Assembly: GCF_963921235.1 (NCBI RefSeq)
Contig: NC_086108.1
Location: 51,772,001 to 51,836,000, forward strand
Length of the DNA: 64,000 nucleotides
From: Mobula hypostoma
Taxonomy: Eukaryota
Reading direction: 5' to 3'
The notes beneath the pieces are model-generated. The model was not told where the DNA came from, made no database searches, and was given only the letters and a program-made list of their open reading frames with translations. The position numbers and the translations under genes are program-made. This document shows positions 14,339-57,985 of the stretch, piece by piece. Within the stretch, counting starts at the first letter, position 1; every line of letters starts with the position of its first letter.

Positions 14339-14473
14339 GATGTCTTGATGAAGGGTCACAGCCGGAAACTTCGATTGTTTACTCTTTTCCATAGATGCTG
14401 CCTGGCCAGCTGAGTTCCTCCAGTATTTTGTGTGTGTTGCTTGGATTTCCAGCATCTGCAGATTTTCTCTTGT
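14339..14473 (+). mobile_element. 135-bp Penelope-derived mini-element with decayed hammerhead
   Basis: gtc-TTGATGA-agggtcacagccg-GAAAC-ttc-gatt followed by the PLE terminal sequence; 11-bp TSD ttcaaatacct (14328-14338 / 14474-14484). Confidence 0.8.
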
Positions 14474-14848
14474 TTCAAATACCTCCTTCCTTGCACAATG
14501 CATATGATCTAAAATGTCACTCCTTATCCGTCTCATTTTGTTGGCATCCATGTTATTCTTCATAGTAAACACTGGGGAGGAGTGAACAGTAAAAATCTCA
14601 GCTACCTCCTCCAGCTCTGCAACTAGTTTAGCTCCTCTGACAGTTTTTAAGAGGACCTATTCTCTCCCTCATCAGGCTTATAATTTAAGAACCTCTTGGG
14701 ATTATTTTATTTTATTTAATTTATCTTTAACCCTGCCTGCCAAATCCATCTCACACCCTTTTTTAACCTTCTGAGATCCCTCTTATGGTTTAAACTTTTT
14801 ATATTTATCAAGGGATTAATTTTTACTAGTTACCTAAATGTGATGTAT

Positions 14849-15673
14849 AAACACAAGCAATTCGGCAGATGCTGAAAATCTTGAGCAACACATACAAAAT
14901 GCTGGAGGAACTCAGCGAGTTAGGCAGCAACTATGGAGAGGAATAAACAGGTCCACTACATGGTCCACTAACACCACAACAATAGTTAAGAAAGCACAGC
15001 AATGTTTGTTTTTCCTCAGGATGCTGAAGAAAGCTGGTCTACCTGAACAGATGCTGGTGACCTTTTACCGCTGCACCATAGAGAGCATCTTAACATACTG
15101 CATCACTGTGTGGTATCTCAGTTGTACAGCAGCTGATAGGAAAGCACTTCAGCGGGTCATCTCTAGCGCACAGAAGATTATCGGGACACAGCTCCCAGCC
15201 CTGAAGGACACTTAAAGCTCACGCTGCCTAAGGAATGTTACAAGCATCTGTAAGGACAATACACACTCATGCAATCACCTGTTTGAACTTCTTCCATCCG
15301 GCAGACGTTATAAGATTTTCTATGCCTGCACTTCCAGACTGAAAAATAGCTTTTTCCCCAGAGCTATAATTGCTCTGAATCAATGGATCAAGCATCATCC
15401 ATAAATTTGTTGTATTGCTACTTTAATACTGATTTTTTGGCTGTCATGCATCTGAGTTGCGCTTTTGTACTGCTGGACATTGCTTGTACTGGCTGGTTAC
15501 TTGATTTTATTTATTGTTTATTTATTTTATTTGTTGTTTTATAGCATTGAGTACGAGAGATGCAAACTCGTTTTCACTGTATTGGTGCATGACAAATTGT
15601 ACTATGCAATGACAATAAAGATATTTCATTTCAAAACAGTCAATGTTTTAGGTCAAGCCCCTTCATATGGACT
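14849..15673 (-). mobile_element. ~136-bp Penelope-derived mini-element split by a Rex1 insertion
   Basis: PLE terminal sequence at 14849-14950 continues at 15640-15673 (decayed hammerhead agtccatatgaagggg...aaaacattgact); 8-bp TSD tgatgtat (14841-14848 / 15674-15681). Confidence 0.75.
14951..15633 (+). mobile_element. Rex1/Babar-type LINE 3' fragment
   Basis: FFLRMLKK...TFYRCTIESILTYCITVWY...RKALQRVI is a typical Rex1 C-terminal region; (tttca)n tail; AAACAG TSD (14945-14950 / 15634-15639). Confidence 0.85.
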
Positions 15674-16699
15674 TGATGTATGCTTCCTTCTTTTTCCTTA
15701 CCAGAGGCTTGATATCCCTGGCAGCCAGAGTTCCCTGAACTTGGTATGTCTGCTTTTCAACCTAAAAGGAACATGCTGCCTTGGATCCTTGAGGTGATCC
15801 TTTTAAAAACGTCCCACCTGCCAATTATCCATTGGCTTTTAAATAGAGTCACCCTGTTGAACACAGCTAGGTCCTGCCTAATGCCTTCAAAATTGGCTCT
15901 GCTCCAATTCAGGACTTTAACCTGTGGATTTGTTCTGTCTTTCACTATAACCCAATGTTTTTCCCAACTGACACTCTAGTTATTTGGCCCGTCTCATTAC
16001 CTAAGTGAAGGTCCAGTATTGCTCAGTTCTGGATAGATTATCTATATATGCAAAAGAAAACTGTCTTGGATGCACTGCACAAATTTTGCCTCATTTAAGC
16101 CCTTCACACTCTGTGCGGCTCAGTCAATATTGGAGAAATTCAAATCTCTCACCAGCACTAGCCTACCATTCTCACAACTGTGTGCAATTTCTCAACACAT
16201 CTGCTCCTCACCTGCTCTTCCTTTTGAACCTCTTTTGTAGAAGCATCCTGATCCACTTATTACAAGCAGTTACGTATCAGCTGAATACTTTTATCTTGCT
16301 CTTTACTGGAACTGGCTTCCTTGATATGATTTACATATCAGAGTGATCCCACATAATCAAGAAGGGGATCACTCTTGTTATTTTTTATATGGTGTGAAAT
16401 TGTACTTTAAAATTTTTAAGCTGCTGTTGAATTTTGGACAATGCATCTACTCACTTTTTCTGTTTACATACCTCTAGACTATTTACGTATTCTACTTTTG
16501 TCTGTGCTTACCAATGCCTTGATCCTTTGCTGAATTTTGAAACTCTCTCAACCCTTAAGCTTCCTGATATTTTTGGAAACACATGTATATCTTTTGATCC
16601 AATACCATCTTTAAAATCTCTAGACTAAGAATAAGCCTACTATTTAAAAGAGGGAGAGAAACTATAAATCAGTAAGCCTGATGTTAATAGAAAGGAATC

Positions 16700-17750
16700 A
16701 TAGAATGGTTATAGAACTGAAGTAAGCCACGAGATCCATTGTGTCCATGTAGGTTCTTGACCAGAGCAAATCAATAGTTCCGCCCCTGACTCTCTCTGTA
16801 GTCTTGCAAAACCTTCTCCAGTATCTATTTATCCAGCTCCCTTTTGAAGGCTAACATGGAACCTGCCTCCATCACTGTAAGCAATGTGTTCTGGACTCCA
16901 AACATATGCTGCAATGAATCATTTCTTTTATCCTTCATTTTTTCCTGTAACCTTCAAGACTCAAGTCCTCCACAGACAGACTCCCACTATTCACTCTGTC
17001 CAGGCCCTTCGTTATTTTATATATAGCTATCTGGTCTCTCCTCAGCCATCTTTAAAGAAAACAATACCAGCTCTCTAATTTGGATTTATAACTGTGGATC
17101 CTCATCGAAGGAAACATTTATATGAATCTTTTCCAAACTCTTCCTAATGCCTTCATTCCTTTAATGAAATAATCAAAATTAAAGAGAATACTCCAGATGA
17201 GACCAGAATATTTTAATAGATATTCATTATGACTTTGCTACTTCTATACTTTGTGCCTCACTTAATAAACTTAATTTGTGCTTGACTTATTAACTGCTTT
17301 CTCAACTTATCCTGCCGCTTTCAATAACTTGTGAACCATATCCTCAGATTCTTTCACTCCATACCTCTTATAATATTCAATAATTTTCCTACCAAAATCA
17401 TCACCGTGCATTTCTTCATACTAACTTTCTTCTACCATTTCTCTGCTTCTTCCACATGTTTGTATCTTGCTGCAGCTTATCACATCCTCTTTGCTGATCA
17501 TAATACTTTCAAGTTAATGCCATCCACTAATTTAGCAACTGTGGCTTGCACCACCAAGTTTAGGGCATTAATAGAGATCAAAACAAGCACTGATGCCCTT
17601 AAAGAACTTCAATTCACTGCCTTTGAATCCAATAAACAACCATTCACCATGATCCTTGATTGTCCATTACTTAGGCAACTTTGTGTCCATGGTATCTATG
17701 AACGCTTTATGCTATGTGCTTCTGGATGTCAATATACACATGTCAACTAC
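16700..17750 (-). mobile_element. Old degraded CR1 LINE
   Basis: aatcatagaat tail and decayed CR1 3' and RT sequence. Confidence 0.55.
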
Positions 17751-18576
17751 ATTGATAAAGAATAGAATTGATGAAAGCAAAGAAATTCTCAAATTGGTTA
17801 AACACAATTTTACCTTTAACAAATTCATGCTTGTTCACCTTATTTAACCCACTATCCTCCAGACTATTAATCCTCCCCTCGATCAAGGTTTCTAAAACCT
17901 TTCCTACTATTAGGTTAAACTGGTTGAACTTTTTTGGAGCACATACTAATTCTTTAGCACCATTGCATTTGAAAGATTATTGGTAATTTGCTCAGAATTT
18001 TTTTTCATAATTTTCTTCAAAATCCCATCCTGTCTTTTTGATGTACCTACTATATATTGAACCAAGTTTTCTAATATCTTCATGCTATCACTTTCTAGAA
18101 TGGATAAGCCAGGTAATTTCAAGGATGAGTTCAACATCAGTGGAAGGGAAGTTAGAAGAAGCCCCGGAAGACAGGGTTAACTTACACGTAGAAAGGGAAG
18201 AATTAAGCAAAGATTATAACTATGGCTTTGATAGAGAGATACAGTCTGACTGATTTAATAGAATTATTTCAGAGGTGACTAAGAATATTGATGAGGAAAG
18301 TGATTCTGTTGTAATCTACATGGATTTCAGTAAAGCCTCTGACAAGTGTCCACATGGGAGAATGATCCAGAAAGTTTGCACCCATGGGATCTACAGCAAG
18401 TTGGGAAACTGGGTTTGAAATTAACTTGGTAATAGGAAGCAGTGTGAGATAGTGGAACATTGTTTTTATATGGGACGCTTGCTGTTCATCATTTACATTA
18501 ATATCCAGAACATGATCAGTAAGAAGGAAGGTTAGGTTACAGTGCAATATTGGTAAAATGGTCAGAGAAAGACAGG

Positions 18577-21163
18577 GCAACACACAAAATGCTGGTGGAA
18601 TGCAGCAGGCCAGGCAGCATCTACTGGAAGAGGTACAGTCAACATTTTGGGCTGAGACCTTTCATTGGGACTAACTGAAAGAAGAGATAGCAAGAGATTT
18701 GAAGGTGGGAGGGGGAGGGGAGATCTGAAATGATAGGAGAAGACAGAGGGGGAGGGATAGAGCTAAGAGCTGGAAAGTTGATTGGCAAAAGGGATACAAG
18801 GCTGGAAAAAGGGGAGGATCATGGGATGGGAGGCCTAGGGAGAAAGAAAGGGGAGAGGAGCACCAGAGGAAGATGGAGAGCAGGCGAAGAGTTATTATGA
18901 GAGGGACAGAGAGAGAAAAGAGAGAGAGAGAGAAAAAAGGGGAAAAATAATAAATAAATAAATAAATAAATAAATAAATGGATAAGAAGGGGAGGAGGGG
19001 CATTAATGGAAGTTAGAGAAGGCAATGTTCATGCCATCAGGTTGGAGGCTACCCAGATGGAATATAAGGTGTTGTTCCTCCAACCTGAGTGTGGCTTCAT
19101 CTTGACAGTAGAGGAGGCCGTGGATAGACATATCAGAATGGGAACGGGACGTAGAATTAAAATGTGTGGCCACTGGGAGATCCTGTTTTCTCTGGCAGAC
19201 AGAGCGTAGGTGTTCAGCGAAACGGTCTCCCAGTCTGCGTCGGGTCTTGCCGATATATAGAAGTCCTCACCTGGAGCACCGGATGCAGTATATCACACCA
19301 GCTGACTCACAGGTGAAGTATCGCTTCACCTGGAAGGACTGTCTGGGGCCCTGAATGGTGGTGAGGGAGGAAGTGTACGGGTATGTGTAGCATTTGTCCC
19401 GCTTACAAGGATAAGTGCCGGGAGGGAGATCGGTGGGAAGGGATGGGGGAGACAAATGGACAAGGGAGTCGCGTAGGTAGCGATTCCTGCAGAAAGCAGA
19501 AACAGCGGGGAGGGAAAGATGTGCTTGGTGGTGGGATCCTGTTGGAGGTGGTGGAAGTTGCGGAGAATTATATGTTGGACCTGGAGGCTGGTGGGGTGGC
19601 AGGTGAGGACAAGTGAAACCCTGTTCATATATAACCATATAACAATTACAGCACGGAAACAGGCCATCTCGGCCCTCCTAGTCCGTGCCGAACTCTTACC
19701 CTATCCTATTCCCATCGATCTGCACTCAGCCCACAACCCTCCATTCCATTCCTGTCCATATATCTATCCAATTTAACTTTAAATGACAACATAGAACCTG
19801 TCTCAACCACTTCTGCTGGAAGCTCGTTCCACACAGCTACCACTCTCTGAGTAAAGAAGTTCCCCCTCATGTTACCCCTAATTTTGTCCTCTAATTCTCA
19901 ACTCATGCCCTCTTGTTTGAATCTTCCCCACTCTCAATGGAAAAAGTCTAACCACGTCAACTCTAACAATCCCCCTCATAATTTTAAACACCTCTATCAA
20001 GTCTCCCCTCAACCTTCTACGCTCCAAAGAATAAAGACCTAACTTGTTCAACCTTTCTCTGCAACTTTGGAGATTAAACCCAGGCAACATTTTAGTAAAC
20101 CTCCTCTGTACTCTCTCAATTTTATTGACATCTTTCCTATAATTCGGTGACCAGAACTGTACACAATACTCCAGATTTGGCTTTACCAATGCCTTATACA
20201 ATTTCAACATTATATCCCAACTCCTATACTCAATGTTCTGATTAATAAAGGCCAGCAAACCAAAAGTATTCTTCACCACCCTATCCACATGAGATTCCAT
20301 CTTCAGGGAACTATGCACCATTATTCCTAGATCCCTCTGTTCGAAAGCATTCTTTAATGCCCTACCATTTACCATGTATGTCCTATTTTGATTAGTTCTA
20401 TCAAAATGTAGCACCTCACATTTTTCAGCATTAAACTCCATCTGCCATCTTTCAGCCCACTCTTCTAACTGTCCTAAATCTCTCTGCAAGTTTTGAAAAC
20501 CTACCTCATCATCCACAGCACCACCTATCTTAGTATCATCTGCATACTTACTAATCCAATTTACCACCCCATCATCCAGATCATTAATATATATATTACA
20601 AACAACACTGGACCCAGTACAGATCCCTGAGGCACACTGCTACACACCGTCCTCTAATCTGACACACAGTTATCCACCACTACTCTCTGGTGTCTCCCAT
20701 CTAGTCACTGCTGAATCCATTTTACCACTTCCATATTAATGCCTAATTAATCAATTAATTAATTCTTAATCAATTATTAATTAATTAACTAATTAATTAT
20801 TCCTAGTGGGGTGGCGGGAGGATGGGGTAAGAGCAGATGTGTGTGAAATGGGAGATGCATTTGAGAGTAGTGTTGATGGTGGAGGAAGGGAAGTCCCTTT
20901 CTTTAAAAAAAGGAAGACATCCCCTTCGTCCTGGAATGAAAAGCCTCATCCTGAGAGCAGATGCGGCAGAGACAGAGGAATTGCAAGAAGGGGATGGCAT
21001 TTTTGCAAGAGACAAGTTGGGAAGAGGAATAGTCCAGGTAGCTGTGAGAGTCCATAGGCTTATAGTAGACATCAGTAGATAAGCTGTCTCCAGAGATAGA
21101 GACAGAAAGATCAAGAAAGGGGAGGGAGGTGTCGGAAATGGACCAGGTAAATTTAAAGGCAGG
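18577..21163 (-). mobile_element. Penelope-like element (Neptune-like): RT C-terminus and GIY-YIG endonuclease, split by a CR1
   Basis: Minus strand encodes LKFTWSISDTSLPFLDL...YYKP.DSHSYL (RT C-terminus) and PGTYPCKRDKCYT...FTCESAGVIYCIRCSR..LYIGKTRRRLGDRFAEH (Cys linker plus GIY-YIG). Decayed hammerhead at ~18637-18672. Confidence 0.88.
19626..20746 (-). mobile_element. CR1 LINE (family C) 3' fragment nested in the Penelope element
   Basis: ORF 19878-20567 (ISKYADDTK...LEYCVQFWSP); (catataac)n tail. Confidence 0.92.
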
Positions 21164-21869
21164 AGTTGTTTAATCCTGATAAGTATGAAATGATGCACTT
21201 TAAGAGGACTAATTGAGCTAGGACACGTATAATCAGTATCAGTATTGAGGAACAAATGGACCTTGAGATATATGTCCTAAGATCACAGAACTTTGCAGCA
21301 CAGGTAGATATAGCTATGAAGGTAAATGGATAATTACCTTCATTAAATAGAGCAAAGAACATCAAAACAGAGGTGCTATAGTACAAGTGTATAAACCATA
21401 AGCGTGTCCTATCTGGGCTACTGTGTTGAGTTCTGATCTTCACCCGACAAGGGAGTGTGCAGAGTAGATTCATTGGGATGTTGAACGGGATGGAGGATTT
21501 TATTTATGAGGAGACACCAGATAGTCTAACTTTGTTTTTCTTGGAGTGGAGGAAGCTAAAGAGATAGCTAATTAATATGTAGAAATTTAGGAGGGACATA
21601 GATAGGGTATGTAATACGTAACATTTCTCCATAGTACAGATGTACAAAACCAGAAAGCATAGGTTTAAGATCTGGATCTACAGGGGATCTGAGGAAGAAA
21701 CTTTTATCAAGAAAGTAGTTGGAATCAAGAATGCTCTGCCCAACAGGGTGGTGCAGATAAGGTCTCATAATATGAATTGCCAAGAAATAGAAGACTAAGT
21801 GATGGAAAATGAGTGAGGATAGAGAACACTCAATGGTCAGCATGGATGTGATGTGCTGAATATCCTCTT

Positions 21870-22035
21870 AACAACACAGATAAAATGGAGGAACTCAGCA
21901 GGCCTGGCAGTGGCTATGAAAGATCGCAGCCTAAAACATCAACTGTTTACTCTTTTCTATAGGCCTGCTGAGTTCCTCCAGCATTTTGATGTGTTGCTTG
22001 GATTTCCAGCATCTGCAGATTTTCCCATGTTTGTA
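21870..22035. mobile_element. 166-bp fold-back Penelope-derived mini-element
   Basis: Perfect 20-bp inverted repeat (21886-21905 / 21961-21980); the forward copy starts at a decayed hammerhead; 11-bp TSD aat(a/g)tcctctt (21859-21869 / 22036-22046). Confidence 0.75.
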
Positions 22036-23514
22036 AATGTCCTCTTTCTGTGCTATCTAATGTTATGACTCTGGAAGATTTGAGGACAGGAGTATAGAGG
22101 TCTTATTGTAATTATTTATTTACCATGGAGGCAGTGCAGTAACAGTTTGCTGAACTGCTTACTGGAAATGGTGGGGTTGCTGAATGAGGCAAGATCGAGT
22201 AAACCAAGCTCATGTTCTCTAAATTTTGGAAGAATGGAAGGATATCTCATCAAAAATTACAGCATTCTAACAGGGCTCAACAGAATGGGTTCAGAGAGGG
22301 TGTCTTTTTTTGTTGAGAAGTCTAAAACTAGGATCACAGACTGAAAGTGGTGAACCATTTTGGACTGAGATGCATTTGGAATAAGTTCTAAAAATTACAG
22401 AAAAGAGATTAGCCAAATACTTTGTAAGTCCTTAACAGTAGGATAAAACACATTCCCATTGAAGCAGATTTGATGGGCTGAACAACCTAATTCTGCTCCT
22501 GTCTTAATAATACATGCCTTCACTGGTATGTCATACTTCTTTTAAACTAATAAGTACCTATTAAAATTAGAAAGAATCCACATTACTGCCATGGATCATT
22601 TACCTGATCCAACAAAAAATTTAAACCCAAGGTTAGAATTCTGGGAATGGGCATCACAGCCCATTGTCTAGAATTCCTTTTCCAAGCATAACATTGTAAA
22701 AATTCTGTTCCAAATGTGTAATACTCCCTTATTATCAGAGATCTTCTGCTATGCATATTAAATTACACAATTCATTGCCAAACAAGTCTTACATTTTGAA
22801 CTTTGACCAATTCATATGAAAATGGCCTCTTTACTTCTTTGGTGAAGTCATTAACCCATTTATTTTAAAACAGTTTAATTCCTTGTGAAAGTAAGAGTAC
22901 CCAACATTTTGGTTCCACCATTCTCCAAAGACTTGTCAAAGTTTACCGAGTGCTCCTGTCAGTATGCTTATTAACTTTGTTTTCTTATTAACAGACTTCT
23001 AGTTAACAGTGCAATTCCCATCCTTGTTTTCAAATCACTTCCTTTCATTGCCCCTCCTCATCTCACTAATCTCCCCAACCACCCTTAAATGTCTGTCTTT
23101 CTCTGGTTTTGGCAAACTGTATATCCCTGTTTATTATTATTACTCCACCATTAGCAATTCCGATTCACATGCTTTGAACCTGATGCATGACAGCATAGAA
23201 TGCGTGCTGTTGGTGTTTCAAATGAAAAATAATCATGAAACTTCCATTAACAGTGAGGAACAATCTCAACAACAACATTCTGAACAAAGACTTTATGAGT
23301 AACCCTTTGTATCCAGTACTTCAATTTGATCTTTCACACACATATGGACAATCCTATGCTGTATATAAAATTGGACAAAGATGACGTGGCCATCTTTTAC
23401 ATTGATTTAGGCACAAATCATATTCTGGTTCTAACACATATACAATCAAAATCCAAACTTATTATTAAAGTTCAAATTTCAAAGTAAATTTATTATTAAA
23501 GTACATATATGTTA

Positions 23515-28902: not shown

Positions 28903-29529
28903 GGGAGACCACTTTGCTGAACACCTACGCTCTGTCCACCAGAGAAAGCAGGATCTCTCAGTGGCCACACGTTTTAATTCCACATCCTATTCCCATTCTG
29001 ACATGTCAATCCACGGCCTCCTCCACTGTAAAGATGAAGCCACACTCAGGTTGGAGGAACAACACCTTATATTCCATCTGGGTAGCCTCCAACCTGATGG
29101 CATGAACATCAACTTCTCTAACTTCCACTAATGCCCCACCTCCCCCTCGTACCCCATCCGTTATTTATTTTTATACACACATTCTTTCTCTCTCTCCTTT
29201 TTCTCCCTCTGTCCCTCTGACTATACCCCTTGCCCATCGTCTGGTTCCCCCCCCCCACAGTCTTTCTCCCTGGGCCTCCTGTCCCATGATCTTCTCATAT
29301 CCCCTTTGCCAATCACCCGTTCAGCTCTTGGCTCCATTCCTCCCCCTCCTGTCTTCTCCTACTTTCAAATCTCTTACTAGCTCTTCCTTCAGTTAGTCCT
29401 GACGAAGGGTCTTGGCCTGAAACGTCGACTGTACCTCTTCCTAGAGATGCTGCCTGGCCTGCTGCGTTCACCAGCAACTTTGATGTGTGTTGCTTGTATT
29501 TCCAGTATCTGCAGAATTCCTGTCATTTG
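28903..29529 (+). mobile_element. Penelope-like element 3' fragment replacing part of the CR1 endonuclease
   Basis: GDHFAEHLRSV...VATRFNS..HS...RLEEQHLIFHLGSLQPDGMN (GIY-YIG C-terminus), pyrimidine-rich UTR, hammerhead and tail. Confidence 0.9.
29395..29430 (+). ncRNA. Minimal type I hammerhead ribozyme motif
   Basis: AGTC-CTGACGA-AGG(gtcttgg)CCT-GAAA-CG-TC-GACT: stem I AGTC/GACT, intact core, stem II, and palindromic ACGT mini stem III. Predicted cleavage after GUC (29426). Confidence 0.82.
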
Positions 29530-32745: not shown

Positions 32746-32754
32746 AAATACGTT

Positions 32755-33350
32755 TCTGCTTTCTTCCCTCTCCTCCTTCCTGATTTAGCGCTCCAAGAGG
32801 ACTTTGTCCTGCAACACCCTGATTCACTATTCCATCTTCACCAGCACCCAGCACCTTTCTGTGATCTGCAGGAAATGCAACACTTGCTCTTTTACCTCAT
32901 TCCTTCCTACCAGCCAGAGAGTCAAAACATTCCTTTGAGATGATGCAGACAATTTATGGTATTCCATTTGGTATTCACAGTGCGGTGACCTCTAATTTGG
33001 AGAAACCAAACACAGATTGGAAGACCACTCTGAAGAACACGTCTGTTCAGTTCACAAGAATAACTCTGAGCTTCAAATTGACTGACATCAATTCTTTACC
33101 TCACTCTTTATTGTTGCACACTGTTCCAAAAAAGAGACTGGAGAATATAAACTTCCAAAAGTGAGAAACCGCATCTCATCCTCTGACTAAGCATGCTACA
33201 GCCTCAGTATTCAACAGCAACTTCAATCCAGTTTGTACCAGAAATGGACGATTCTGATGAAAGGTCATCAACTTGTTATGCCAATTTGATTTGTTTCTGC
33301 AGAAAAAAGGCTGACTGACCTGCTGGGTATTTCCAGCATTCTCTTCTATT
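32755..33350 (+). mobile_element. Old degraded Penelope-like fragment
   Basis: Decayed Cys-linker/GIY-YIG sequence; ctgatgaaaggtc hammerhead remnant (~33254) and terminal ctgacctgctgggtatttccagcatt. Confidence 0.6.
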
Positions 33351-36499: not shown

Positions 36500-37300
36500 A
36501 CACTGGTTTGAAGAAAGTGGTGAGCGTTGTTTGCTTGGCAGCTGCCCAGTGGACAGGAAGCATATTCTTACTCAAACTCTTAAGAGCACTGGGGTTTAGT
36601 GAATGCTAAACTAAGAGGCTTTATTTTACAGTCTCTTTCAGCATTGGAACACATAAGCAGAGTCAACCTATCCTTTGCTGTCTTGAAACCTGACACAGGT
36701 TTTTCATCCTTACTTATATAAGTGCATTTCAGCATACGTTTCCAAAAAAGCCCGTTCTCGTCTGCATTAAACACCCGCTTTGGCGTGATGCCTAACTCAG
36801 CTATCATAGCCCGCAACTGCAAAGAGTAGCGTTTAGCAGCTTTGTGGTCAGCACTAGCTTGCTCACCACGCACAGCTAAGTTGTGAAGCCTGTGACAATT
36901 AACAAACTTAGAAAACCATCCCCTACTTGCATTAAAGTTAACAATATCACTTGACACTTCCTCACTAGCCTCTGAACAAAGGCAACCATAAATTTCCAAA
37001 GCTTTCACACGAAGACGATCGGAATTGAGTGTTGTTTTTTTCTTTATTTCATGCTCAACGTACAAACTCAACATTTTCTCCATTTTTGTCATAATCAACT
37101 TATGCACTTTGGTAACAATCTTTGAAGACACTTGTGATGAATCAATCACTGCACTTTTTATTTTCTCAGCATTTTTCTTTATGTTTCTGATCATGGACTC
37201 ACCCAGGCCGAAGTAGCATCCCAGAGCTGTGTTATCTTCACCTGACACAGCTCTGTTTATAATTTCCAACTTTTTTTTCAAGTGTTAAAGCGGTTCTCTG
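36500..37300 (-). pseudogene. pogo/Tigger transposase (two HTH domains and first catalytic D; rest deleted)
   Basis: RTALTLEKKLEII...ESMIRNIKKN (psq HTH), FNASRGWFSKF (CENP-B HTH), GEQASAD, VFNADENGLFWK, KDRLTLLMCSNA; MLPVHW is joined directly to C-terminal KQTTLTTFFKP. Confidence 0.9.
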
Positions 37301-37302
37301 CC

Positions 37303-37821: not shown

Positions 37822-38478
37822 GAGGCGTGCGCACATGATTTGTATTGGCGGGAAAGCGGTGTTTCTCGTCCCAACAGCCTCACATAACTGTGAGTTTTGG
37901 ATATACATAAGGAGAAGTTGGTAGAAATAGGTTCGACGCATAACTGTGAATCCGCATTGTCTGAGGACGCATATAACGAGGATAGAGTGCGTTAGCCATC
38001 CTTCTGTGAAGAAAATTACACAACAGTCCCTGATGTCCCTCTGGTACTGAAATCTTGCTCTGAGGTCATCACTCATCAGTTTTATTTTCCAGAGACTGTA
38101 CATTCACCAGCAGGATATCCTACTGCAGCTTCCCCTCCAGTTTGACTATCCTGAGTTGTACATAATTATATCACAAGTCCTTCATGATTGCTGAGCTCAA
38201 ATCCTGGAACTCTGTATTTGCAATTATTCCACATTACCCTAATCTCCAACCTCTCGCTCAAGCCAGTGGCAATTTAAATTGATTAACCTAACATCTTCAA
38301 AAGGCAGTGCCTCAAGAAGACAACACCCATCACTAAGGACCTTCACTATCTGGGACATGCACTCTTCTTATTACTACCATCAGGGAGGAGATACAGGACC
38401 CTGAATGCTTGCACTCAAATAATCACAAACAGCTTCTTCCTCCCTGCCATCAAATTTCTGAATGGCATATGAACCCAT

Positions 38479-38741
38479 AACTCCACCACGGATGGTCCCA
38501 AGCCTGGTTGCAAAAGGAGGAGGTTTGGGCATGAGGTTAGCATCCCATTCCTGTAAAATCCCAGTGCTATAGAAACACCAACAGAGGTTCCCATGACCTC
38601 ATCCCTGGGAGAGGAAGGAAGAAGATGGGCTACACCTGGGGACAATGTGAAAGACTGGTCCAGGGCAGAGGACTCCGGTGAGCTGCTGTCAGAAGCCTAT
38701 GCCCCAATAGTCACGATGGGTAAGTAATAAGTCAGTAACTA
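38479..38741 (+). mobile_element. RTE-derived bipartite non-autonomous element
   Basis: RTE 5' motif ggtcccaagcc...ggtttgggcatgaggttagca...ctgtaaaa fused to an RTE 3' end (TWGQ..RLVQGRGL...LCP) and a (taag)n-like tail; 12-bp TSD atatgaa(c/a)ccat. Confidence 0.7.
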
Positions 38742-46348: not shown

Positions 46349-46562
46349 GGCCTTTGGCCGGTGGTGTAAGGGCATCCACACTGGACGCCTAGGTGAGTGG
46401 TCCTGGGTTTGAATCCAGCCAGCTTTTTACAAGCTTTCAATCCGTGCTGGGTTGAGCATCAAGCTTGCAACTCAGCCTTGTCAAAAACTAACAAGCATGT
46501 AAAAGAAATGGCAAGGAGTACCACCCGATATGCCACAAGGCGCAGAAAGGAACAATAACAAA
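46349..46562 (+). mobile_element. tRNA-derived SINE with RTE-like body
   Basis: A-box-like tggccggtggtgtaagg, B box gggtttgaatcc, RTE-like gggttgagcatcaagcttgcaactcagccttgtcaaaa, (aaca)n tail. Confidence 0.6.
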
Positions 46563-46820
46563 GGGTGGCTGTAAAGACACAAAATCAAATTTCAGAAGTA
46601 GCACATTACAATGCAGGGTTCTGATGCAGCTTGACCCTCTGAGATCCTCCAGCAGTTTGTTTTTTTCCCCAAATTCCAGCATCTTGAGTCTCTTGTGTCC
46701 AATTATAACATAATGTGTGTTAAGTATTTCAATGTAAATTGCATTCAGCAGAACTTACCTTATGCTGTATTCCCATTGACAGGGGAGGACTAGAAAATTC
46801 CAAGTCGCCTTGCAGTATTA

Positions 46821-47170
46821 TAGAACATAGAAATCTACAGTACATACAGGACCTTCGGCCCACAATGTTGTGCCGACCATGTAACTTACTTTAGAAACTG
46901 CCTAGAATTTCCCTAGTGCAGAGCCTTCTATTTTACTAAGCTCCAACCATTTAAAAGGCCCTAGGCTTTTAAAAGACCCTATTGTATCTGCTTCCATCAC
47001 TGCCACCAGCAGTGCACTCCACACACCCACCACTCTCTGTCTGAAAAACTTACCCCTGACATCCTCTCGGTACATATTTCCAAGCACCTTAAAACTATGC
47101 CCCCTCATGTTAGCTCTGGGAAAAAGCCTCTGGCTATCCACACGATCAATGCCTCTCATCATCTTATAAT
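46821..47170 (-). mobile_element. CR1 (family D-like) 3' fragment
   Basis: YKMMRGIDRVDSQRLFP...RGKFFRQRVV; tagaacatagaa tail. Confidence 0.85.
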
Positions 47171-47674
47171 GCCCCTCATCATCTATTCTGTGCTGTATCG
47201 CTTTAGATATATAGACAGAAATACAGACCAACCAGATTCAATCCTGGCCTCATGTGCCTTCCATGCAGAGTTTGCACATTTGCCCTGTGACAGTACAGGT
47301 TTCTTCTGTGTACAGGTTAGTACTATAAACTGTCCTTAATGTGTGGGTGAGTGGTAGAATTTGTGACAAGTTGATGAAAATATGGGGAGAATAAAATCTG
47401 GGATTAATACAGGATTGGTGCAAGTGGATAGTAGATGGTCAGTGCAATTTGATGCGGCCAAGTGACTGCTACTGTGCAAATTGCCCAAGAACTAAAAAGG
47501 TAGTTGAGTGTCATCCATACTGGGAATTGGGTTATTTATGGGTCAGTACAGGCAAGGACAGTGCACATTTTTCCCTTGAAGATCTTTAGTAAACCACAGG
47601 GATGTTTCTCTTCATAACTCCAAAAATGTTTAATACATTAGATAAATTGAATGTAAACTCCCAAGGTGATGTGA

Positions 47675-50182
47675 TGATGTTATAATGGGTGACTTCAATC
47701 TACATGTAGACTGGGTGAACCAAATTGGTAAAGGTGCTGAGGAAGAGGATTTCTTGGAATGTATGCGGGATGGTTTTTTGAACCAACATGTCGAGGAACC
47801 GACTAGAGAGCAGGCTATTCTGGACTGGGTTTTGAGCAATGAGGAAGGGTTAATTAGCGATCTTGTCGTGAGAGGCCCCTTGGGTAAGAGTGACCATAAT
47901 ATGGTGGAATTCTTCATTAACATGGAGAGTGACGTAGTTAATTCAGAAACAAAGGTTCTGAACTTAAAGAGGGGTAACTTTGAAGGTATGAGACGTGAAT
48001 TAGCTAAGATAGACTGGCAAATGACACTTCAAGGATTGACGGTGGATATGCAATGGCAGGCATTTAAAGGTTGCATGGATGAACTACAACAATTGTTCAT
48101 CCCAGTTTGGCAAAAGAATAAATCAAGGAAGGTAGTGCACCCGTGGCTGACAAGAGAAATTAGGGATAGTATCAATTCCAAAGAAGTAGCATACAAATTA
48201 GCCAGAGAAAGTGGCTCACCTGAGGACTGGGAGAAATTCAGAGTTCAGCAGAGGAGGACAAAGGGCTTAATTAGGAAGGGGAAAAAAGATTATGAGAGAA
48301 AACTGGCAGAGAACATAAAAACGGACTGTAAAAGCTTTTATAGATATGTAAAAAGGAAAAGACTGATAAAGACAAATGTAGGTCCCCTGCAAACAGAAAC
48401 AGGTGAATTGATTATGGGGAGCAAGGACATGGCAGACCAATTGAATAATTACTTTGGTTCTGTCTTCACTAAGGAGGACATAAATAATCTTCCAGAAATA
48501 GTAAGGGACAGAGGGTCCAGTGAGATGGAGGAACTGAGCGAAATACATGTTAGTAGGGAAGTGGTGTTAGGTAAATTGAAGGGATTGAAGGCAGATAAAT
48601 CCCCAGGGCCAGATGGTCTGCATCCCAGAGTGCTTAAGGAAGTGGCCCAAGAAATAGTGGATGCATTAGTGATAATTTTTCAAAACTCGTTAGATTCTGG
48701 ACTAGTTCCTGAGGATTGGAGGGTGGCTAATGTAACCCCACTTTTTAAAAAAGGAGGGAGAGAGAAACCGGGGAATTATAGGCCGGTTAGCCTAACGTCG
48801 GTGGTGGGGAAACTGCTGGAGTCAGTTATCAAGGATGTGATAACAGCACATTTGGAAAGCGGTGAAATGATCGGACAAAGTCAGCATGGATTTGTGAAAG
48901 GAAAATCATGTCTGACGAATCTCATAGAATTTTTTGAGGATATAACTAGTAGAGTGGATAGGGGAGAACCAGTGGATGTGGTATATTTGGATTTTCAAAA
49001 GGCTTTTGACAAGGTCCCACATAGGAGATTAGTGTGCAAACTTAAAGCACACGGTATTGGGGGTAAGGTATTGGTGTGGGTGGAGAATTGGTTAGCAGAC
49101 AGGAAGCAAAGAGTGGGAATAAACGGGACCTTTTCAGAATGGCAGGCGGTGACTAGTGGGGTACCGCAAGGCTCAGTGCTGGGACCCCAGTTGTTTACAA
49201 TATATATTAATGACTTGGATGAGGGAATTAAATGCAGCATCTCCAAGTTTGCGGATGACACGAAGCTGGGTGGCAGTGTTAGCAGTGAGGAGGATGCTAA
49301 GAGGATGCAGGGTGACTTGGATAGGTTGGGTGAGTGGGCAAACTCATGGCAGATGCAATTTAATGTGGATAAATGTGAAGTTATCCACTTTGGTGGCAAA
49401 AATAGGAAAACAGATTATTATCTGAATGGTGGCCGATTAGGAAAAGGGGAGGTGCAACGAGACCTGGGTGTCATTATACACCAGTCATTGAAAGTGGGCA
49501 TGCAGGTACAGCAGGCGGTGAAAAAGGCGAACGGTATGCTGGCATTTATAGCGAGAGGATTCGAGTACAGGAGCAGGGAGGTACTACTGCAGTTGTACAA
49601 GGCCTTGGTGAGACCACACCTGGAGTATTGTGTGCAGTTTTGGTCCCCTAATCTGAGGAAAGACATCTTTGCCATAGAGGGAGTACAAAGAAGGTTCACC
49701 AGATTGATTCCTGGGATGGCAGGTCTTTCATATGAAGAAAGACTGGATGAACTGGGCTTGTACTCGTTGGAATTTAGAAGATTGAGGGGGGATCTGATTG
49801 AAACGTATAAGATCCTAAAGGGATTGGACAGGCTAGATGCAGGAAGATTGTTCCCGATGTTGGGGAGGTCTAGAACGAGGGGTCACAGTTTGAGGATAGA
49901 GGGGAAGCCTTTTAGGACCGAGGTTAGGAAAAACTTCTTCACACAGAGAGTGGTGAATCTGTGGAATTCTCTGCCACAGCAAACTGTTGAGGCCAGTTCA
50001 TTAGCTATGTTTAAAAGGAAGTTAGATATGGCCCTTGTGGCTACAGGGGTCAGGGGGTATGGAGGGAAGGCTGGGTTCTGAGTTGGATGATCAGCCATGA
50101 TCATAATAAATGGCGGTGCAGGCTCGAAGGGCCGAATGGCCTACTCCTGCACCTATTTTCTATGTTTCTATGTTTCTATGTT
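47675..50182 (+). mobile_element. CR1 LINE (family B), young, 5'-truncated
   Basis: Near-identical to 11176-13009 over the shared part; (ttctatgt)n tail. Confidence 0.95.
47685..50081 (+). CDS. CR1 ORF2 (partial APE endonuclease plus reverse transcriptase), 798 aa, uninterrupted
   Basis: GDFN...SDH (APE C-half), KSPGPDG, NYRPVSL, QHGF, DFQKAFD, GVPQGSVLGP, FADD. N-terminus is truncated. Confidence 0.92.
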   Translation: MGDFNLHVDWVNQIGKGAEEEDFLECMRDGFLNQHVEEPTREQAILDWVLSNEEGLISDLVVRGPLGKSDHNMVEFFINMESDVVNSETKVLNLKRGNFEGMRRELAKIDWQMTLQGLTVDMQWQAFKGCMDELQQLFIPVWQKNKSRKVVHPWLTREIRDSINSKEVAYKLARESGSPEDWEKFRVQQRRTKGLIRKGKKDYERKLAENIKTDCKSFYRYVKRKRLIKTNVGPLQTETGELIMGSKDMADQLNNYFGSVFTKEDINNLPEIVRDRGSSEMEELSEIHVSREVVLGKLKGLKADKSPGPDGLHPRVLKEVAQEIVDALVIIFQNSLDSGLVPEDWRVANVTPLFKKGGREKPGNYRPVSLTSVVGKLLESVIKDVITAHLESGEMIGQSQHGFVKGKSCLTNLIEFFEDITSRVDRGEPVDVVYLDFQKAFDKVPHRRLVCKLKAHGIGGKVLVWVENWLADRKQRVGINGTFSEWQAVTSGVPQGSVLGPQLFTIYINDLDEGIKCSISKFADDTKLGGSVSSEEDAKRMQGDLDRLGEWANSWQMQFNVDKCEVIHFGGKNRKTDYYLNGGRLGKGEVQRDLGVIIHQSLKVGMQVQQAVKKANGMLAFIARGFEYRSREVLLQLYKALVRPHLEYCVQFWSPNLRKDIFAIEGVQRRFTRLIPGMAGLSYEERLDELGLYSLEFRRLRGDLIETYKILKGLDRLDAGRLFPMLGRSRTRGHSLRIEGKPFRTEVRKNFFTQRVVNLWNSLPQQTVEASSLAMFKRKLDMALVATGVRGYGGKAGF

Positions 50183-51874: not shown

Positions 51875-52952
51875 TTACTACAAAATACTCTGCAGATGCT
51901 GGGGTCAAAGCAACACTCACAACCTGCTGGAGGAACTCAGCAGGTTGGGCAGCATCCGTGGAAATGATGAGTCGATATTTCGGGCCGGAACCCTTCGTCA
52001 GGACTGTAGAGGGAAGGGGCAGAGGCCCTATAAAGAAGATGGGGGGAGGGTGGGAAGGAGAAGGCTGGTAGGTTCCAGGTGAAAAACCAGCAAGGGGAAA
52101 GATAAAGGGGTGGGGGAGGGGAGGCAGGGAGGTGATAGGCAGGAAAGGTGAAGAAGGAATAGGGGAAAACACAATGGGTAGTAGAAGGAGGCGGAACAAT
52201 GAGGGAGGTGATAGGCAGCTGGGGGAGGGGGCAGAGTGAAATAGGGATAGAGGAAGGGAGGGGGAGGGAATTACCGGAAGTTGGAGAATTCTATGTTCCT
52301 ACCAAGGGGCTGGAGACTACCTAGACGGTATATGAGGAGGTTGCTCCTCCATCCTGAGTTTAGCCTCATCATGGCAGTAGCGGAGACCATGTATGAACAT
52401 ATCTGAATGGGAATGGGAAGCAGAATTGAAGTGGGTGGCAACTGGGAGATCCTGTCTGTTGTTGCGGACGGAGCAGAGGTGCTCGACGAAGCGGTCCCCC
52501 AGTCTGTTTCACCGATGTAGAGGTGGCCTTACCGGGAGCACCGGATGCAATAGATAACCCCAACAGACTCACAAGTGAAGTGTTGCCTCACCTGAAAGGA
52601 CTGTTTAGGGCCCTGAATGGTGGCAAGAGAGGAGGTGTAGGGACTGGCGTAGCACTTACACTTACGGGGATAAGTGCCGGGTGGGAGGTGTGGATCAGGG
52701 AGTTGCAGAGGGACCAATCTCTGCAGAAAGCAGCAAGGGGTGGAGAGGGAAAGATGTGCTTAGTGGTGGGGTCCTGTTGAAGGTGGCAGAAGTTGCGGAG
52801 GATAATGTGCAGGATCCGGAGGGTGGTGGGGTGGTAGGTGAGGACAAGGGGAACTTTGTCCCTGTTGTGGTGGCTGGAGGATGGGGTGAGGGCCCTTCTG
52901 CCGTCATCAATGATGTCCTCACCCGCATCTCCTCCACTTCCCGCACTTCGGC
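51875..52952 (-). mobile_element. Penelope-like element 3' fragment with inverted 5' segment
   Basis: PGTYPRKCKCY...FTCESVGVIYCIRCSR GIY-YIG region; 52893-52952 is the upstream continuation in the opposite orientation. Confidence 0.88.
51970..52005 (-). ncRNA. Minimal hammerhead ribozyme motif (variant)
   Basis: Minus strand: AGTC-CTGACGA-A-GGG(ttccgg)CCC-GAAA-TA-TC-GACT; stem III palindrome ATAT, AUC triplet. Confidence 0.72.
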
Positions 52953-53559
52953 ACCTCTAGCTCTAGTCCACCCAACTTCAGTGGAAAAAACTTGCTTGCA
53001 TTTACCCTATCTATACCCCTCAGAATTTTGTATACTTCTATCAAATCTCACCTCATTCTCCTACACTTGAAGGAATAAAGTCCCAGCCTATTCAACCTTT
53101 CTATATAACTCAGGTCCTCAAGTCCTGGCAATATCCTTGTAAATTTTCTCTACACTCTTTCAATCTTATTTACATCTTTCTTGTAGGCAGGTGACCAGAA
53201 CTGCACAAAATACTCCAAATTAGGCCTCACCAATGTCTTGTACAACAACGTAACATCTCAATTCCTGTACGCAATAATTTGATTTATGAAGGTCAATGTG
53301 CCAACAGCTCTCTTTAGGACCCTATCTACTTGCGACTGCACTTTCAAGGAATTATGTATCTGTATTCCCAGATCCATCTGTTCTACTGCATTGATCAGTG
53401 CCCTGCTGCTTACCATGTAAGCCCTATCCTGGTCTGTCCTCCAAAAGTGTAACATCTCACACTTGTCTACATTAAATTATATCTGCCATTTTTCAAGCAA
53501 CACACATAAAAGTTGCTGGTGAACGCAGCAGGCCAGGCAGCATCTCTAGGAAGAGGTGC

Positions 53560-53595
53560 AGTCGACGTTTCAGGCCGAGACCCTTCGTCAGGACT
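53560..53595 (-). ncRNA. Minimal type I hammerhead ribozyme motif
   Basis: Minus strand: AGTC-CTGACGA-AGG(gtctcgg)CCT-GAAA-CG-TC-GACT. Confidence 0.82.
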
Positions 53596-54430
53596 AACTG
53601 AAGGAAGAGTGAGTAAGGGATTTGAAAGTTGGAGGGGGAGGGGGAGATCCAAAATGATAGGAGAAGACAGGAGGGGGAGGGATGGAGCCAAGAGCTGGAC
53701 AGGTGATAGGCAAAAGGGATACGAGAGGATCATGGGACAGGAGGTCTGGGAAGAAAGACAAGGAGGTGGGGGGGGACCCAGAGGATGGGCAAGGGGTATA
53801 TTCAGAGGGACAGAGGGAGAAAAAGGAGAGTGAGAGAAAGTGTGTATAAAAATAAGTAACAGATGGGGTACGAGGGGGAGGTGGGGCATTAGCGGAAGTT
53901 AGAGAAGTTGATGTTCATGCCATCAGGTTGGAGGCTACCCAGACGGAATATAAGGTGTTGTTCCTCCAACCTGAGTGTGTCTTCATCTTTACAGTAGAGG
54001 AGGCCGTGGATAGACATGTCAGAATGGGAATGGGATGTGGAATTAAAATGTGTGGCCACTGGGAGATCCTGCTTATATTCCGTCTGGGTAGCCTCCAACC
54101 TGATGGCATGAATATCAACTTCTCTAACTTCCGCTAATGCCCCACCTCCCCCTCGTACCCCATCTGTTACTTATTTTTATACACACTTTCTCTCACTCTC
54201 CTTTTTCTCCCTCTGTCCCTCTGAATATACCCCTTGCCCATCCTCTGGGTCCCCCCCCACCTCCTTGTCTTTCTTCCCAGACCTCCTGTCCCATGATCCT
54301 CTCGTATCCCTTTTGCCTATCACCTGTCCAGCTCTTGGCTCCATCCCTCCCCCTCCTGTCTTCTCCTATCATTTTGGATCTCCCCCTCCCCCTCCAACTT
54401 TCAAATCCCTTACTCACTCTTCCTTCAGTT

Positions 54431-54466
54431 AGTCCTGACGAAGGGTCTCGGCCTGAAACGTCGACT
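54431..54466 (+). ncRNA. Minimal type I hammerhead ribozyme motif
   Basis: AGTC-CTGACGA-AGG(gtctcgg)CCT-GAAA-CG-TC-GACT; predicted cleavage after 54462. Confidence 0.82.
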
Positions 54467-55078
54467 GCACCTCTTCCTAGAGATGCTGCCTGGCCTGCTG
54501 CGTTCACCAGCAACTTTTATGTGTGTTGCTTGAATTTCCAGCATCTGCAGAATTCCTGTTGTCTGCCATTTTTCAGCCCATTTGTCCAGCAGGTCCAGAT
54601 CCCATTGCGAACTTTGATAGCCTTACTCACTATCCACCACACTCCCAGCCTTAGAGTCATCCAAAAAGCCACTTTGACAATCCCTAATCAGTCCCTGTCT
54701 ATCCAAATACTTATATATCCGGTCCGTTAGAATACCTTCCAATTACTTACCCATTACAGGCTCACCGGCCTATAATTTCCCAGCTTATTTTTAGAACCTT
54801 TGTTAAACAATGGAACAAATTAGCAATCGTCCAATCCTCTGGCATCTCACCCATTACCAAGGATGTTTTAAATATCTCTGCTAGGGCCCCTGCAATTTCC
54901 CTACTAGCCTCCCAGAAGGTCCAAAAGAATACCTTATCTGGTCCTGGGGATTTAGCCATCTTAATTTGCCTCAATATAGTCCATAACCTCCCTGCCATTT
55001 TGCCTTACGTCTACAGATTCTGTGTCCATCTCCTGAGTAAATACAGATGCATAAAATCTATTTAAGATCTCATCTATG

Positions 55079-55672
55079 TGTAACACGCTGCAAGATTTCA
55101 CTGCTAAGACTGAGACTAAAACTAGTGTAATGTTTCACTGCTAATGTAATGGTTTCTCTGTAGCAGCAATGTTTGGGTTATGACTAGAGATAACGGGACT
55201 TTAGAATGCGGGGTCTATCCAATGAGAAAATGTTATTCTTTCTTGTGTGTCTGGAAGCCGAGATTTTCAGGGTCTTTCATCAGGGAGCGATAAAGAGGGA
55301 ACACGAATGGAGAGAGTCAGAAGACCACCGGATGGAGTGGACTGAGGAGCAAGGGTTCCGAGGGCCGGCTACGCTTGGAGGTCGACGGGAATAAATGAAC
55401 AAACAGTGAGCTCCAATGATGTGCAATAGACTTTTTCCTTAATATGGGCCCTTCTACTTTTTATTTTCTTTACTAACTCTCTATCCAGATTAAGATTTAT
55501 AAAGTACAATCATTTAATTGCATATGGTGTACTGTCTGATATTTTGCAGTACGGATTTGTAACTGGGCAACACATCACGCAGCATCCACACAAACAAGAT
55601 TTCTCAGTTTGGCGGGGCCAGAAGTTGTTTTTCCCCTAGACTAACACATGCTGGCCAAGCCTAAGGGTTACA
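55079..55672. mobile_element. Solo LTR (594 bp)
   Basis: TGTAAC...GTTACA termini; 4-bp TSD (t/c)atg; interrupts CR1 family E. Confidence 0.8.
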
Positions 55673-55825
55673 CATGCCTAGATAACAACTCTGATATTGA
55701 AGAGGACCAATTTTGTCCCTCGCTTTTAATATATCTGTAGAAGCCCTTGGGTCCTTCACTTTTTCTGCTAGAGCAACCTCATGCCTTCTTTTATCCCTTC
55801 TGAACTGTTGTCTTGTATTTCTCAT

Positions 55826-56827
55826 TTCATTTTATTTTAAAATCTTTTTTATTAATTATTATTGAAAATCAACAAAAAATACATTAAAGTAATCAAGTCA
55901 ACATGCCAATACGTACAATAAGAATTAAATGATCACATAACTGATTAACAAAGCTAAAGAATATATCAATAATAATAAGAAAAAAATAAAATGTTAAAAC
56001 TTTTTTTTTGGAAAAAAGAAAGAAGGAAAAAAGAATCCCTACTAACTAAAACAAAAAAAACCCCTACTAACAAAAAAAAACCCATTGGGAGCACAACCCC
56101 GGAGCTATATACCGTACAAGCTTCCATAAAAGAGAAACATCAATCCACCAACTCAAATCCATTTACACAAGAATCAGAAGGGGACCATCTTAATTAACTC
56201 AAATCAAATGATAGTAGCGGGCAAAAGAACCCCATCTTTTCTCAAAGTCAAATCAAGGATCAAAAGTTCGACTTCTGATTTTCTCCAAACTAAGACATAA
56301 CATCACCTGAGAGAACTATTGTATCAAAGTGGGAGCAGAGGCATATTTGCATTTCAATAAAATAGCCCTTCTGGCCAGTAATGTGACAAATGCAATTACA
56401 TGTTGGTCTGATATAGAAATACCATGAATATATTGAGGGATTATACCGATGAAAACTGTCAATTTATTAGGTTGTAAATTAATTTTTGAAGCTTTAGAAA
56501 TTGTAGAGAAAATAGATTTCCAAAACTGTTTCAATACAGAACACGATCAAAACATATGTGTCAATGTGGCTGTCTCAGTTTTGCATCTATCACACTATCT
56601 ATCAACATTAGGAAATATTTTAGACAGTCTCTCCTTTGTCAAATAGTAATGATGTACAATTTTAAATTGATTTAAAGAGTGACTGACACAAATCAAAGAA
56701 GAGTTAACCAACTTCAAAATTCGCAATCAATCCTCTGTTATCAAGGTCATGTTAAGCTCTCTTTCCCAATCTTGCTTAATCTTAAGTAAAGGATAATTGT
56801 ACTGTTGTAATAGTAAATGTGAGTACA
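55826..56827 (-). mobile_element. L1-clade LINE 3' fragment
   Basis: CDRCKTETATLTHMF.SC (C-terminal CCHC), QFWKSIF...LLARRAILLK; A-rich tail; 15-bp TSD tcttg(t/c)atttctcat (55811-55825 / 56828-56842). Confidence 0.85.
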
Positions 56828-57858
56828 TCTTGCATTTCTCATACTCCTCAAATACCTCATTTGGTTCTTCATGTTTATACCTGCTATACACTTCTTTCTT
56901 CTCAATATCTCTCGAAAACCAAGGTTCCCTAAATCTCTTATTCTTGCCTTTTATTCTGACAGGAACATACAAACTCTGTACTCTCAAAATTTCACTTTTG
57001 AAGTCCTTCCACTTGCCAAACACACTTTTGGCTGTAAACAACCTGTCCCAGTCCACACTTGCCAAATAATTTCTGATACCATCAAAAATGGCCTTTTCCC
57101 AATTTAGAATCTCAGCCTGAGGACCAAAACTATCCTTCTTCATAATTATATTGAAACTAATGACATTATGATCACTATATGCAAAGTGTTCCCCTACACA
57201 AACTTCTGTCACCTGCCCTGTCTCATTCCCTAATAGGGGATCAAGTATCACACTCCCTCTGGTTGAAACCTCTATGTTTTGATTAAGGAAACTTTCCTGA
57301 ACACATCTGACAAACTCTTTCCCATCCAGCCCTTTTCTGGTATGGGAGTCCCAGTCAATATGAGGAAAATTAATATTACCTACTATCACAGCCTTATGTT
57401 TCTTGGAAGAGTCTGCAATCTCTCTACAAATTTGCTCCTCTAAATCACGTGGACTGTTGGGTGGTCTATAATATAATCCCATTACTGTGGTTATCTCTTT
57501 CTTATTCCTCAGTTCCGTCCATATAGCCTCAGTAGACCAGCTCTCCAGCCTGTCCTGTCTGAGCACTGCCGTAACATTTTCCCTGATTAGTAATGCCACC
57601 CATCCCCTTTTAAACCTTCTCACTCTATTACATCTGAAACAATGGGCTGCCAGTCCTGCCCCACCTACAACCAAGTCTCACTCGTGACTACAATGTCATA
57701 ATTCCATGTGCCCCTAGTTCATCTGCCTTTTGTATAATACTTAAGAATTATATTTTTGGCATGTTAAAATAGTCCCCTAACAAAGCACCAAAGAGGATCA
57801 GGAATATCTTGGAGGAAAACTGAATTCTGTCATCCCATCAGATTGGGCATTTTGATTG

Positions 57859-57985
57859 CTGACGAAGGGTCTCGGCCTGAAACGTCGACTGCGCCTCTTC
57901 CTATAGATGCTGCTTGGCCTGCTGCGTTCACCAGCAACTTTGATGTGTGTTGCTTGAATTTCCAGCATCTGCAGAATTCCTGTTG
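57859..57985 (+). mobile_element. ~125-bp Penelope-derived mini-element starting exactly at the hammerhead core
   Basis: CTGACGA-AGG(gtctcgg)CCT-GAAACGTC-GACT followed by terminal sequence; 9-bp TSD ttgattgct (57852-57860 / 57983-57991). The 5' strand of stem I is missing. Confidence 0.88.

Follow-up and report, generated by a model that had tools for sequence, protein, structure and literature searches.

In the window analysed here, a 64,000-nt stretch of Mobula hypostoma DNA (contig NC_086108.1, positions 51,772,001 to 51,836,000), four short insertions (A, B, C, and D) are made up of the terminal 120-136 bp of a Penelope-like element (PLE) of the Neptune type, and their 5' ends fall within 9 nt of each other at the 5' edge of a predicted minimal hammerhead ribozyme. 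This preferred 5' end of short PLE copies is probably real. We favour, with a rough probability of 0.45, the explanation that the PLE reverse transcriptase starts at an internal site, about 100 or 130 nt downstream, and reaches the end of its template where a capped RNA begins at the hammerhead edge. That the short copies are 3'-end products of a PLE and not a retrozyme we regard as very likely.

Short insertions and the position of their 5' ends

All four insertions, each bordered by a target site duplication (TSD), were confirmed in the window. Positions within the element are counted from the first base of hammerhead stem I (+1), which corresponds to position 54431 in the long copy F, our reference copy for positions.

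14339-14473, + strand: short copy A, 135 bp, tailed; TSD 14328-14338 / 14474-14484
14849-15673, - strand: short copy B, 136 bp, composed of 15640-15673 plus 14849-14950; TSD 14841-14848 / 15674-15681
14951-15639, + strand: 3' fragment of a long interspersed nuclear element (LINE) within B, a later 689-bp insert with an ALKBH8_N (PF09004) match and its own AAACAG duplication
57859(61)-57982, + strand: short copy C, 122-124 bp, young subfamily; TSD 57852-57860 / 57983-57991
21870-22035, + strand: fold-back short copy D, tail-less inverted arm 21870-21918, forward arm 21916-22035

The 689-bp LINE fragment that interrupts B is presumably Rex1/Babar. The TSDs are TTCAAATACCT for A (11 bp, exact), TGATGTAT for B (8 bp), and TTGATTGCT for C (9 bp, overlapping the CT of CUGA), and D is flanked by an 11-bp duplication with one mismatch (21859-21869 / 22036-22046). 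The chance TSD matches expected in the search boxes amount to 0.0002, 0.011, 0.002, and 0.005 for A, B, C, and D, respectively. The independent TSD-flanked insertions described in the initial annotation are thus present. In case of C, the insertion itself stands, but not its right end, since the proposed end at 57985 takes in 3 nt of the right TSD and the true end is 57982.

The 5' start of A reads G+ATGTC, i.e., an extra G followed by the 5' strand of stem I with one inserted T. B starts exactly at +1 (AGTCC), C starts at CUGA (+5, or up to +7 since the CT is common to the TSD), and the forward arm of D begins at +8, with an ATG microhomology at the joint of its two arms. With A set at 0, the four ends span 9 nt and are situated 24-32 nt upstream of the cleavage site, in agreement with the earlier statement that the short copies start near stem I or CUGA. 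The tailed 3' end is common to all four.

Five further loci in the window, found by BLAST and by a hidden Markov model (HMM) of the terminus, end in the same way and are long (F, G, H, E, and K). Nine loci were scorable (short, 4/9), leaving out two old, weak remnants of related PLE termini at 46623-46688 (+) and 3604-3644 (-), whose 5' ends are too decayed for scoring. The probability that any four of nine ends fall within 9 nt is 0.018, 0.003, 0.0007, and 0.00009 for exponential truncation with means of 150, 300, 500, and 1000, respectively, 0.0025 for log-uniform truncation, and 0.0012 for a lognormal distribution fitted to all nine loci. Under these smooth models (P 0.00009-0.018), the ends cluster beyond random 5' truncation, as had been proposed from the initial inspection.

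Identity of the element and state of the hammerhead

The long copies and the hammerhead of the reference copy are the following.

53496-54561, both arms: young long copy F, inverted tail-less arm to 54074 (-), forward arm 54072-54561 (+); TSD of 14 bp, 53482-53495 / 54562-54575
28903-29523, + strand: long copy G with GIY-YIG C-terminus, 3' untranslated region (UTR), hammerhead, and tail
18577-19619, - strand: copy H, long and without a tail, with remnants of GIY-YIG and a linker of the CxxxxCxxC type; Neptune-like
51889-about 52950, - strand: long copy E, different subfamily, hammerhead intact; 5' limit approximate
about 32985-33345, + strand: old long copy K, terminus by HMM (E 2e-4), upstream limit by eye; absent from the initial annotation
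54431-54466, + strand: minimal type I hammerhead of F, intact, with stem I AGTC/GACT, CUGAcGA, bulged A, stem II, and GAAAC-GUC

Upstream of the terminus, the long copies contain a pyrimidine-rich 3' UTR preceded by a GIY-YIG C-terminus with a CX2-5CxxC linker. When H, E, and F are translated, the linker cysteines and the motifs of the GIY-YIG region can be read by eye ahead of this common terminus, and a Pfam search of the broken protein fragments gave no match. A CX2-5CxxC linker is associated with Neptune PLEs (PMC8557442; this and the other papers cited are drawn on in excerpt). Two 3' ends about 28 nt apart were observed, the tail-less one in copy H and in both inverted arms (those of D and F), the tailed one elsewhere; contigs of relatives compared with F have, among the loose ends listed, such ends at 54528/9 and 54557. 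Since an optional tail of about 30 bp, an inverted tail-less copy, and a short TSD together are the signature of a PLE insertion, the copies are assigned to endonuclease-positive (EN+) PLEs, the clade name Neptune being based on the motif reading and PMC8557442.

The two arms of F (463 bp) are 99.8% identical and form a perfect long hairpin. F is a very young insertion inside a CR1-type LINE and may be polymorphic. A short, broken, internal fragment of a PLE reverse transcriptase region, which lacks the terminus, is located at about 20800-21280 (-) and adjoins a TAAT microsatellite. Due to its occurrence in gene models labelled by their source as Mobula and Hemitrygon, the family is a ray family. 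In the ray gene models P0001, P0002, and P0007 (a STARD3NL isoform, an uncharacterised protein, and CEP72), exons derive from the PLE terminus, in sense orientation in two and in antisense in one; exonisation and an annotation mistake are both possible.

The hammerhead structure is predicted, and its identification in the window was based on features published for minimal hammerhead ribozymes (min-HHRs; PMC4209133). F, G, and E carry the CUGAnGA / GAAA core, helices I and II, the bulged A, the palindromic 15.2-16.2 positions, and NUH, with predicted cleavage in F between 54462 and 54463 (+32/+33). Stems I and II consist of 89% standard pairs across the copies, a covariation test across the copies revealed no compensatory changes, the predicted fold of the 51-nt hammerhead region is not more stable than those of shuffled sequences (z -0.24), and an Rfam search of the window gave no hammerhead match. 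A weak twister-P1 match at 38474-38528 (+), with 28 bits vs a gathering score of 67 and an E value of 0.063, is probably due to chance. Motif scans of viral, metagenome, and prokaryote contigs gave no match.

The short copies had also been said to keep the uncleaved ribozyme. They do span the cleavage site, but a complete hammerhead is found in none of the four: the 5' strand of stem I is missing from C, CUG is missing from D, and the core is mutated in A and B. CpG decay is among the changes in B, D, and the long copy H, as would be expected without selection. The min-HHRs of metazoan PLEs are mostly solitary motifs, "probably related to truncated PLEs" (PMC4209133, 2014).

Origin of the common 5' end

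According to the explanation we favour, the transcript would be capped, and its first base would be the A of AGTCC or a base beside it, where hammerhead stem I has its 5' edge. The PLE protein would nick AT-rich DNA and begin reverse transcription internally at either of two sites about 100 or 130 nt downstream, and the initiation signal would lie near the RNA 5' end as well as at the 3' end. When the 5'-proximal signal is used, a cDNA of about 130 nt would run off the end of the template in the manner of a strong-stop product, and the cap may sometimes be copied as an extra G. As the sequence shows, the end is joined directly in A and B, whereas in C and D a few bases are lost and the joint has 2-3 nt of microhomology; TSDs of 8-11 bp are left behind. 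The ribozyme sequence would be carried along since the template is uncleaved, with no selection on the ribozyme after insertion. An RNA 5' end at +1 would yield exactly such short copies. The region around +1 is organised as follows.

54410-54432, + strand: pyrimidine tract with CAG/TAG (3' splice-site-like), overlapping the initiator-like TT-A-GTCC with +1 = 54431

The layout of tract and initiator is the same in G and H, and E has the tract with CAG, without a full initiator match. For the PLE of the anole (Poseidon PAc), reverse transcription in vitro starts internally at two sites 111-118 nt into an open reading frame (ORF) that begins in the hammerhead, shortening of the template at its 5' end shortens the product, and uncleaved RNA is the main substrate (PMC11167929). 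The two 3' ends of the window copies match these two initiation sites. An extra G at the 5' junctions of full-length L1 copies reflects the cap (PMC11702581), and an extra G was observed at three junctions of the PLE, i.e., in A and in two joints of relatives' contigs. A ribozyme-cleaved template was rejected for the short copies, as none of the four starts at the cleavage site (+33).

The 24 runs found are all contigs, and the sample outside the window comprises contigs of relatives only (best shares 0.56 and 0.41), which were compared against F. The listing gives 27 joints, with 689 more beyond it; of these 27, the 13 that reflect the inversion of F itself were left out and 14 were kept. The X17 joint 54115 to 54431 and record 16 of X14 were not counted, 54431 being the start of the homology of other subfamilies to F. 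Among the joints listed, 3 of 22 joint ends fall within +0 to +9, a zone fixed beforehand from the window copies (P 0.018). They belong to the X5 joints 54504 to 54431 and 54541 to 54431 and to the X17 joint 54432 to 54474, which connects opposite strands. Both X5 joints meet +1 via one G, which is not accounted for by the flanking bases of F on either side. Contig depth, a measure which cannot rank parts of a stretch, was set aside as evidence: it was 3.0x (X1) and 3.9x (X5) of the upstream median in the bins past +1, young-type depth was only 1.3x and 1.1x of the best upstream bin, and no step occurred at the cleavage site in the DNA runs (1.01, 0.91). Protein searches for further breakpoints gave no candidate in one case, 6 matches (2 of them relevant) in another, and in a third a match that ends before the hammerhead.

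Several observations weigh against run-off at an RNA 5' end. The short copies number four, and their cluster was noticed post hoc. The capped RNA 5' end at +1 is itself inferred from the sequence: the initiator match is weak (YYANWYY occurs at 1.2% of positions) and incomplete in E, and the splice-acceptor pattern, which is present in F, G, H, and E, is rarer (0.07% of positions). In D. virilis, the start site lies 46 nt plus a 75-nt intron upstream of the hammerhead (PMC4209133, PMC2377424). The extra G is restricted to three junctions, with B lacking it and A requiring the inserted T, and both X5 joints with G come from one run and could represent a subfamily variant. The probability of any 3 joint ends within 2 nt is only 0.07, all three joint ends originate, among the best-supported rows, from a single relative (organism B, with 0.41 of words), and 0 of the 24 loose ends listed is located at 54425-54440, a further 2360 being outside the listing.

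An unlikely alternative that draws on the acceptor pattern is a roadblock at the splice site, by which factors bound to the tract and AG of unspliced nuclear RNA would halt reverse transcription at +1 to +8, with the long copies as read-throughs. Besides the tract and CAG immediately upstream in F, G, H, and E, this would agree with a D. virilis intron whose end coincides with that of helix I on its 5' side (PMC4209133), with the retention of introns by PLEs (PMC8557442), and with the ray gene models P0001 and P0002, predictions in which the element stretch starts at (S/T)V-SPDEG, including the -2 bases, as fits an acceptor CAG/TTAGTCC. However, the extra G is not predicted by a roadblock, no GT..AG joint to the site occurs among the 27 joints listed, and the block of reverse transcription by splicing factors is our own inference. 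Moreover, no upstream exon is common to the copies (A begins GATG, B begins AG), and a spliced template was rejected for the same reason. We give a similarly low probability to ordinary 5' truncation in which the protein or a length limit sets a short mode near 130 bp, to which the match with the hammerhead edge would be incidental. In Chlamys, PLE insertions made de novo have a median of 128 bp, which is put down to 5' truncation (PMC9977147), and a canonical hammerhead is missing from most Chlamys (PMC8557442). A narrow short mode (sigma 0.5-0.3) makes the cluster of four ends in 9 nt less rare (P = 0.04-0.13), and due to the one tailed 3' end in all four copies, length and sequence are inseparable here. 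Nevertheless, no single lognormal distribution with median 128 yields the cluster together with the five long copies (at most 1e-5), the relatives' joints fall on +1/+2, two of them with G, and no well-defined copy shorter than 120 bp was found, the two weak remnants being unscorable.

Both the RNA 5' end and the adjacent upstream 3' splice site are causes that were not considered in the initial annotation, which had offered instead a stop of the reverse transcriptase at the folded ribozyme or a non-autonomous family mobilised by the PLE proteins. The stop was not supported, and a stall at the folded ribozyme, or a snap-back of the cDNA on completion of stem I, is in our opinion highly improbable. 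It is true that the edge of stem I is where the ends fall, that stems I and II are largely paired, and that fold-back forms are present (D and the X17 joint). A structural stop, however, is expected on the 3' side (+36) and not at +1, the cDNA was copied through stems I', III, and II to the far edge, the RNA fold is unremarkable as judged from its z value, and the cDNA hairpin reaches only -2.6 kcal/mol. As to the proposed family, mobilisation by the PLE stands, but a single family similar to short interspersed nuclear elements (SINEs) or to retrozymes does not: C is 97% identical to the long copy F and 94% to the long copy G, groups with both (100/97), and shares only 68-77% identity with the other three short copies, which excludes one family of all four short copies. 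Since two subfamilies or more gave rise to the short form, a mechanism is indicated and not a lineage. A separate SINE-like family, non-autonomous, headed by the hammerhead, and equipped with an internal promoter of its own, could be imagined at least for the older type (A/B/D), but we consider it improbable. A, B, and D are all short without a long counterpart of their type in the window, the identity between A and D is 87%, non-autonomous PLEs exist, and pseudo-long terminal repeats (pLTRs) act in trans (PMC8557442, PMC3846280). On the other hand, A, B, and D are placed without resolution among H and E and form no supported clade, C nests with long copies, the 5' ends vary by up to 8 nt, and the hammerhead is decayed or incomplete in 4/4. 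A tRNA head is lacking as well; no tRNA gene was found in the window and no Rfam match at the 5' ends of the short copies.

Neighbouring features, known systems, and implications

Apart from the PLE copies, the window contains ORF2 stretches of a CR1-type LINE at 47670-50081 and 11146-12916, which are 97-99% identical and include one open frame of 803 amino acids (aa); their sequence suggests that this LINE was recently active. A 228-aa open frame at 62015-62701 (-), situated between 122-bp inverted repeats (61793-61914 / 63292-63413), resembles, as we presume, a Tc1 transposase, and a 234-aa frame at 36580-37284 (-) presumably resembles a Tigger/pogo transposase. Minisatellites of 58, 72, and 36 bp lie side by side at 59556-60430.

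The window copies resemble EN+ PLE insertions in their common 3' terminus, the two 3' ends about 28 nt apart, the tail-less inverted arms (D and F), TSDs of 8-14 bp, and the C-terminal GIY-YIG in the long copies, whereas a sharp class starting from the hammerhead 5' edge is not described in the excerpts of the corresponding reports (PMC8557442, PMC3846280). With Poseidon PAc of Anolis they have in common a hammerhead about 120-130 nt upstream of the initiation of reverse transcription, an uncleaved template, and AT-rich targets (PMC11167929). Unlike PAc, the element of the window is of Neptune-like type, and its sequence yielded no ORF start; genomic 5' breakpoints are not discussed for PAc in the excerpted text. 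The min-HHRs of metazoan PLEs correspond in the type I core, the short helix I, the bulged A before helix II, the palindromic 15.2-16.2, and the absence of helix III (PMC4209133), but the ends of solitary copies are not mapped in the part of that paper considered, and the short copies of the window are incomplete ribozymes. The de novo insertions of Chlamys PLEs are likewise very short (median 128 bp) but belong to an algal clade mostly without a canonical hammerhead (PMC9977147).

Similar to the short copies, non-LTR retrozymes are non-coding, related to PLE pLTRs, and equipped with a type I hammerhead, and monomers occur among them (PMC7229834; bioRxiv 10.64898/2026.07.22.740005). According to the same excerpts, however, retrozymes are tandems of at least two units with complete hammerheads and circles, and the window copies are solitary, TSD-flanked monomers with PLE termini. 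A non-LTR retrozyme was rejected, as no tandem hammerhead array was found in the window and no short copy has an intact ribozyme. The X5 joints, if head-to-tail, would correspond to tandem hammerhead mini-units of about 75 and 112 bp and would be candidate nascent retrozymes.

The element type, the minimal hammerhead, the tail, and very short insertions are already described. In the open-access literature, without supplementary figures, no report of a breakpoint peak or of a sharp copy class at the hammerhead 5' edge was found. We tentatively suggest, at rather less than even odds, that PLEs routinely make a strong-stop-like product by internal initiation close to the capped 5' end of their RNA, resulting in a discrete class of insertions of about 130 bp whose 5' ends record where transcription begins, at the hammerhead edge. 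If such a class is real, the 5' end of the PLE template could be mapped from genomic junctions alone, and these would support, in vivo, that uncleaved RNA is used for internal initiation. If true, such a product could account for the solitary hammerheads that flood the genomes of fish, amphibians, and elasmobranchs, and it is tempting to speculate that head-to-tail pairs of these units could seed non-LTR retrozymes, i.e., a route from pLTR to retrozyme.

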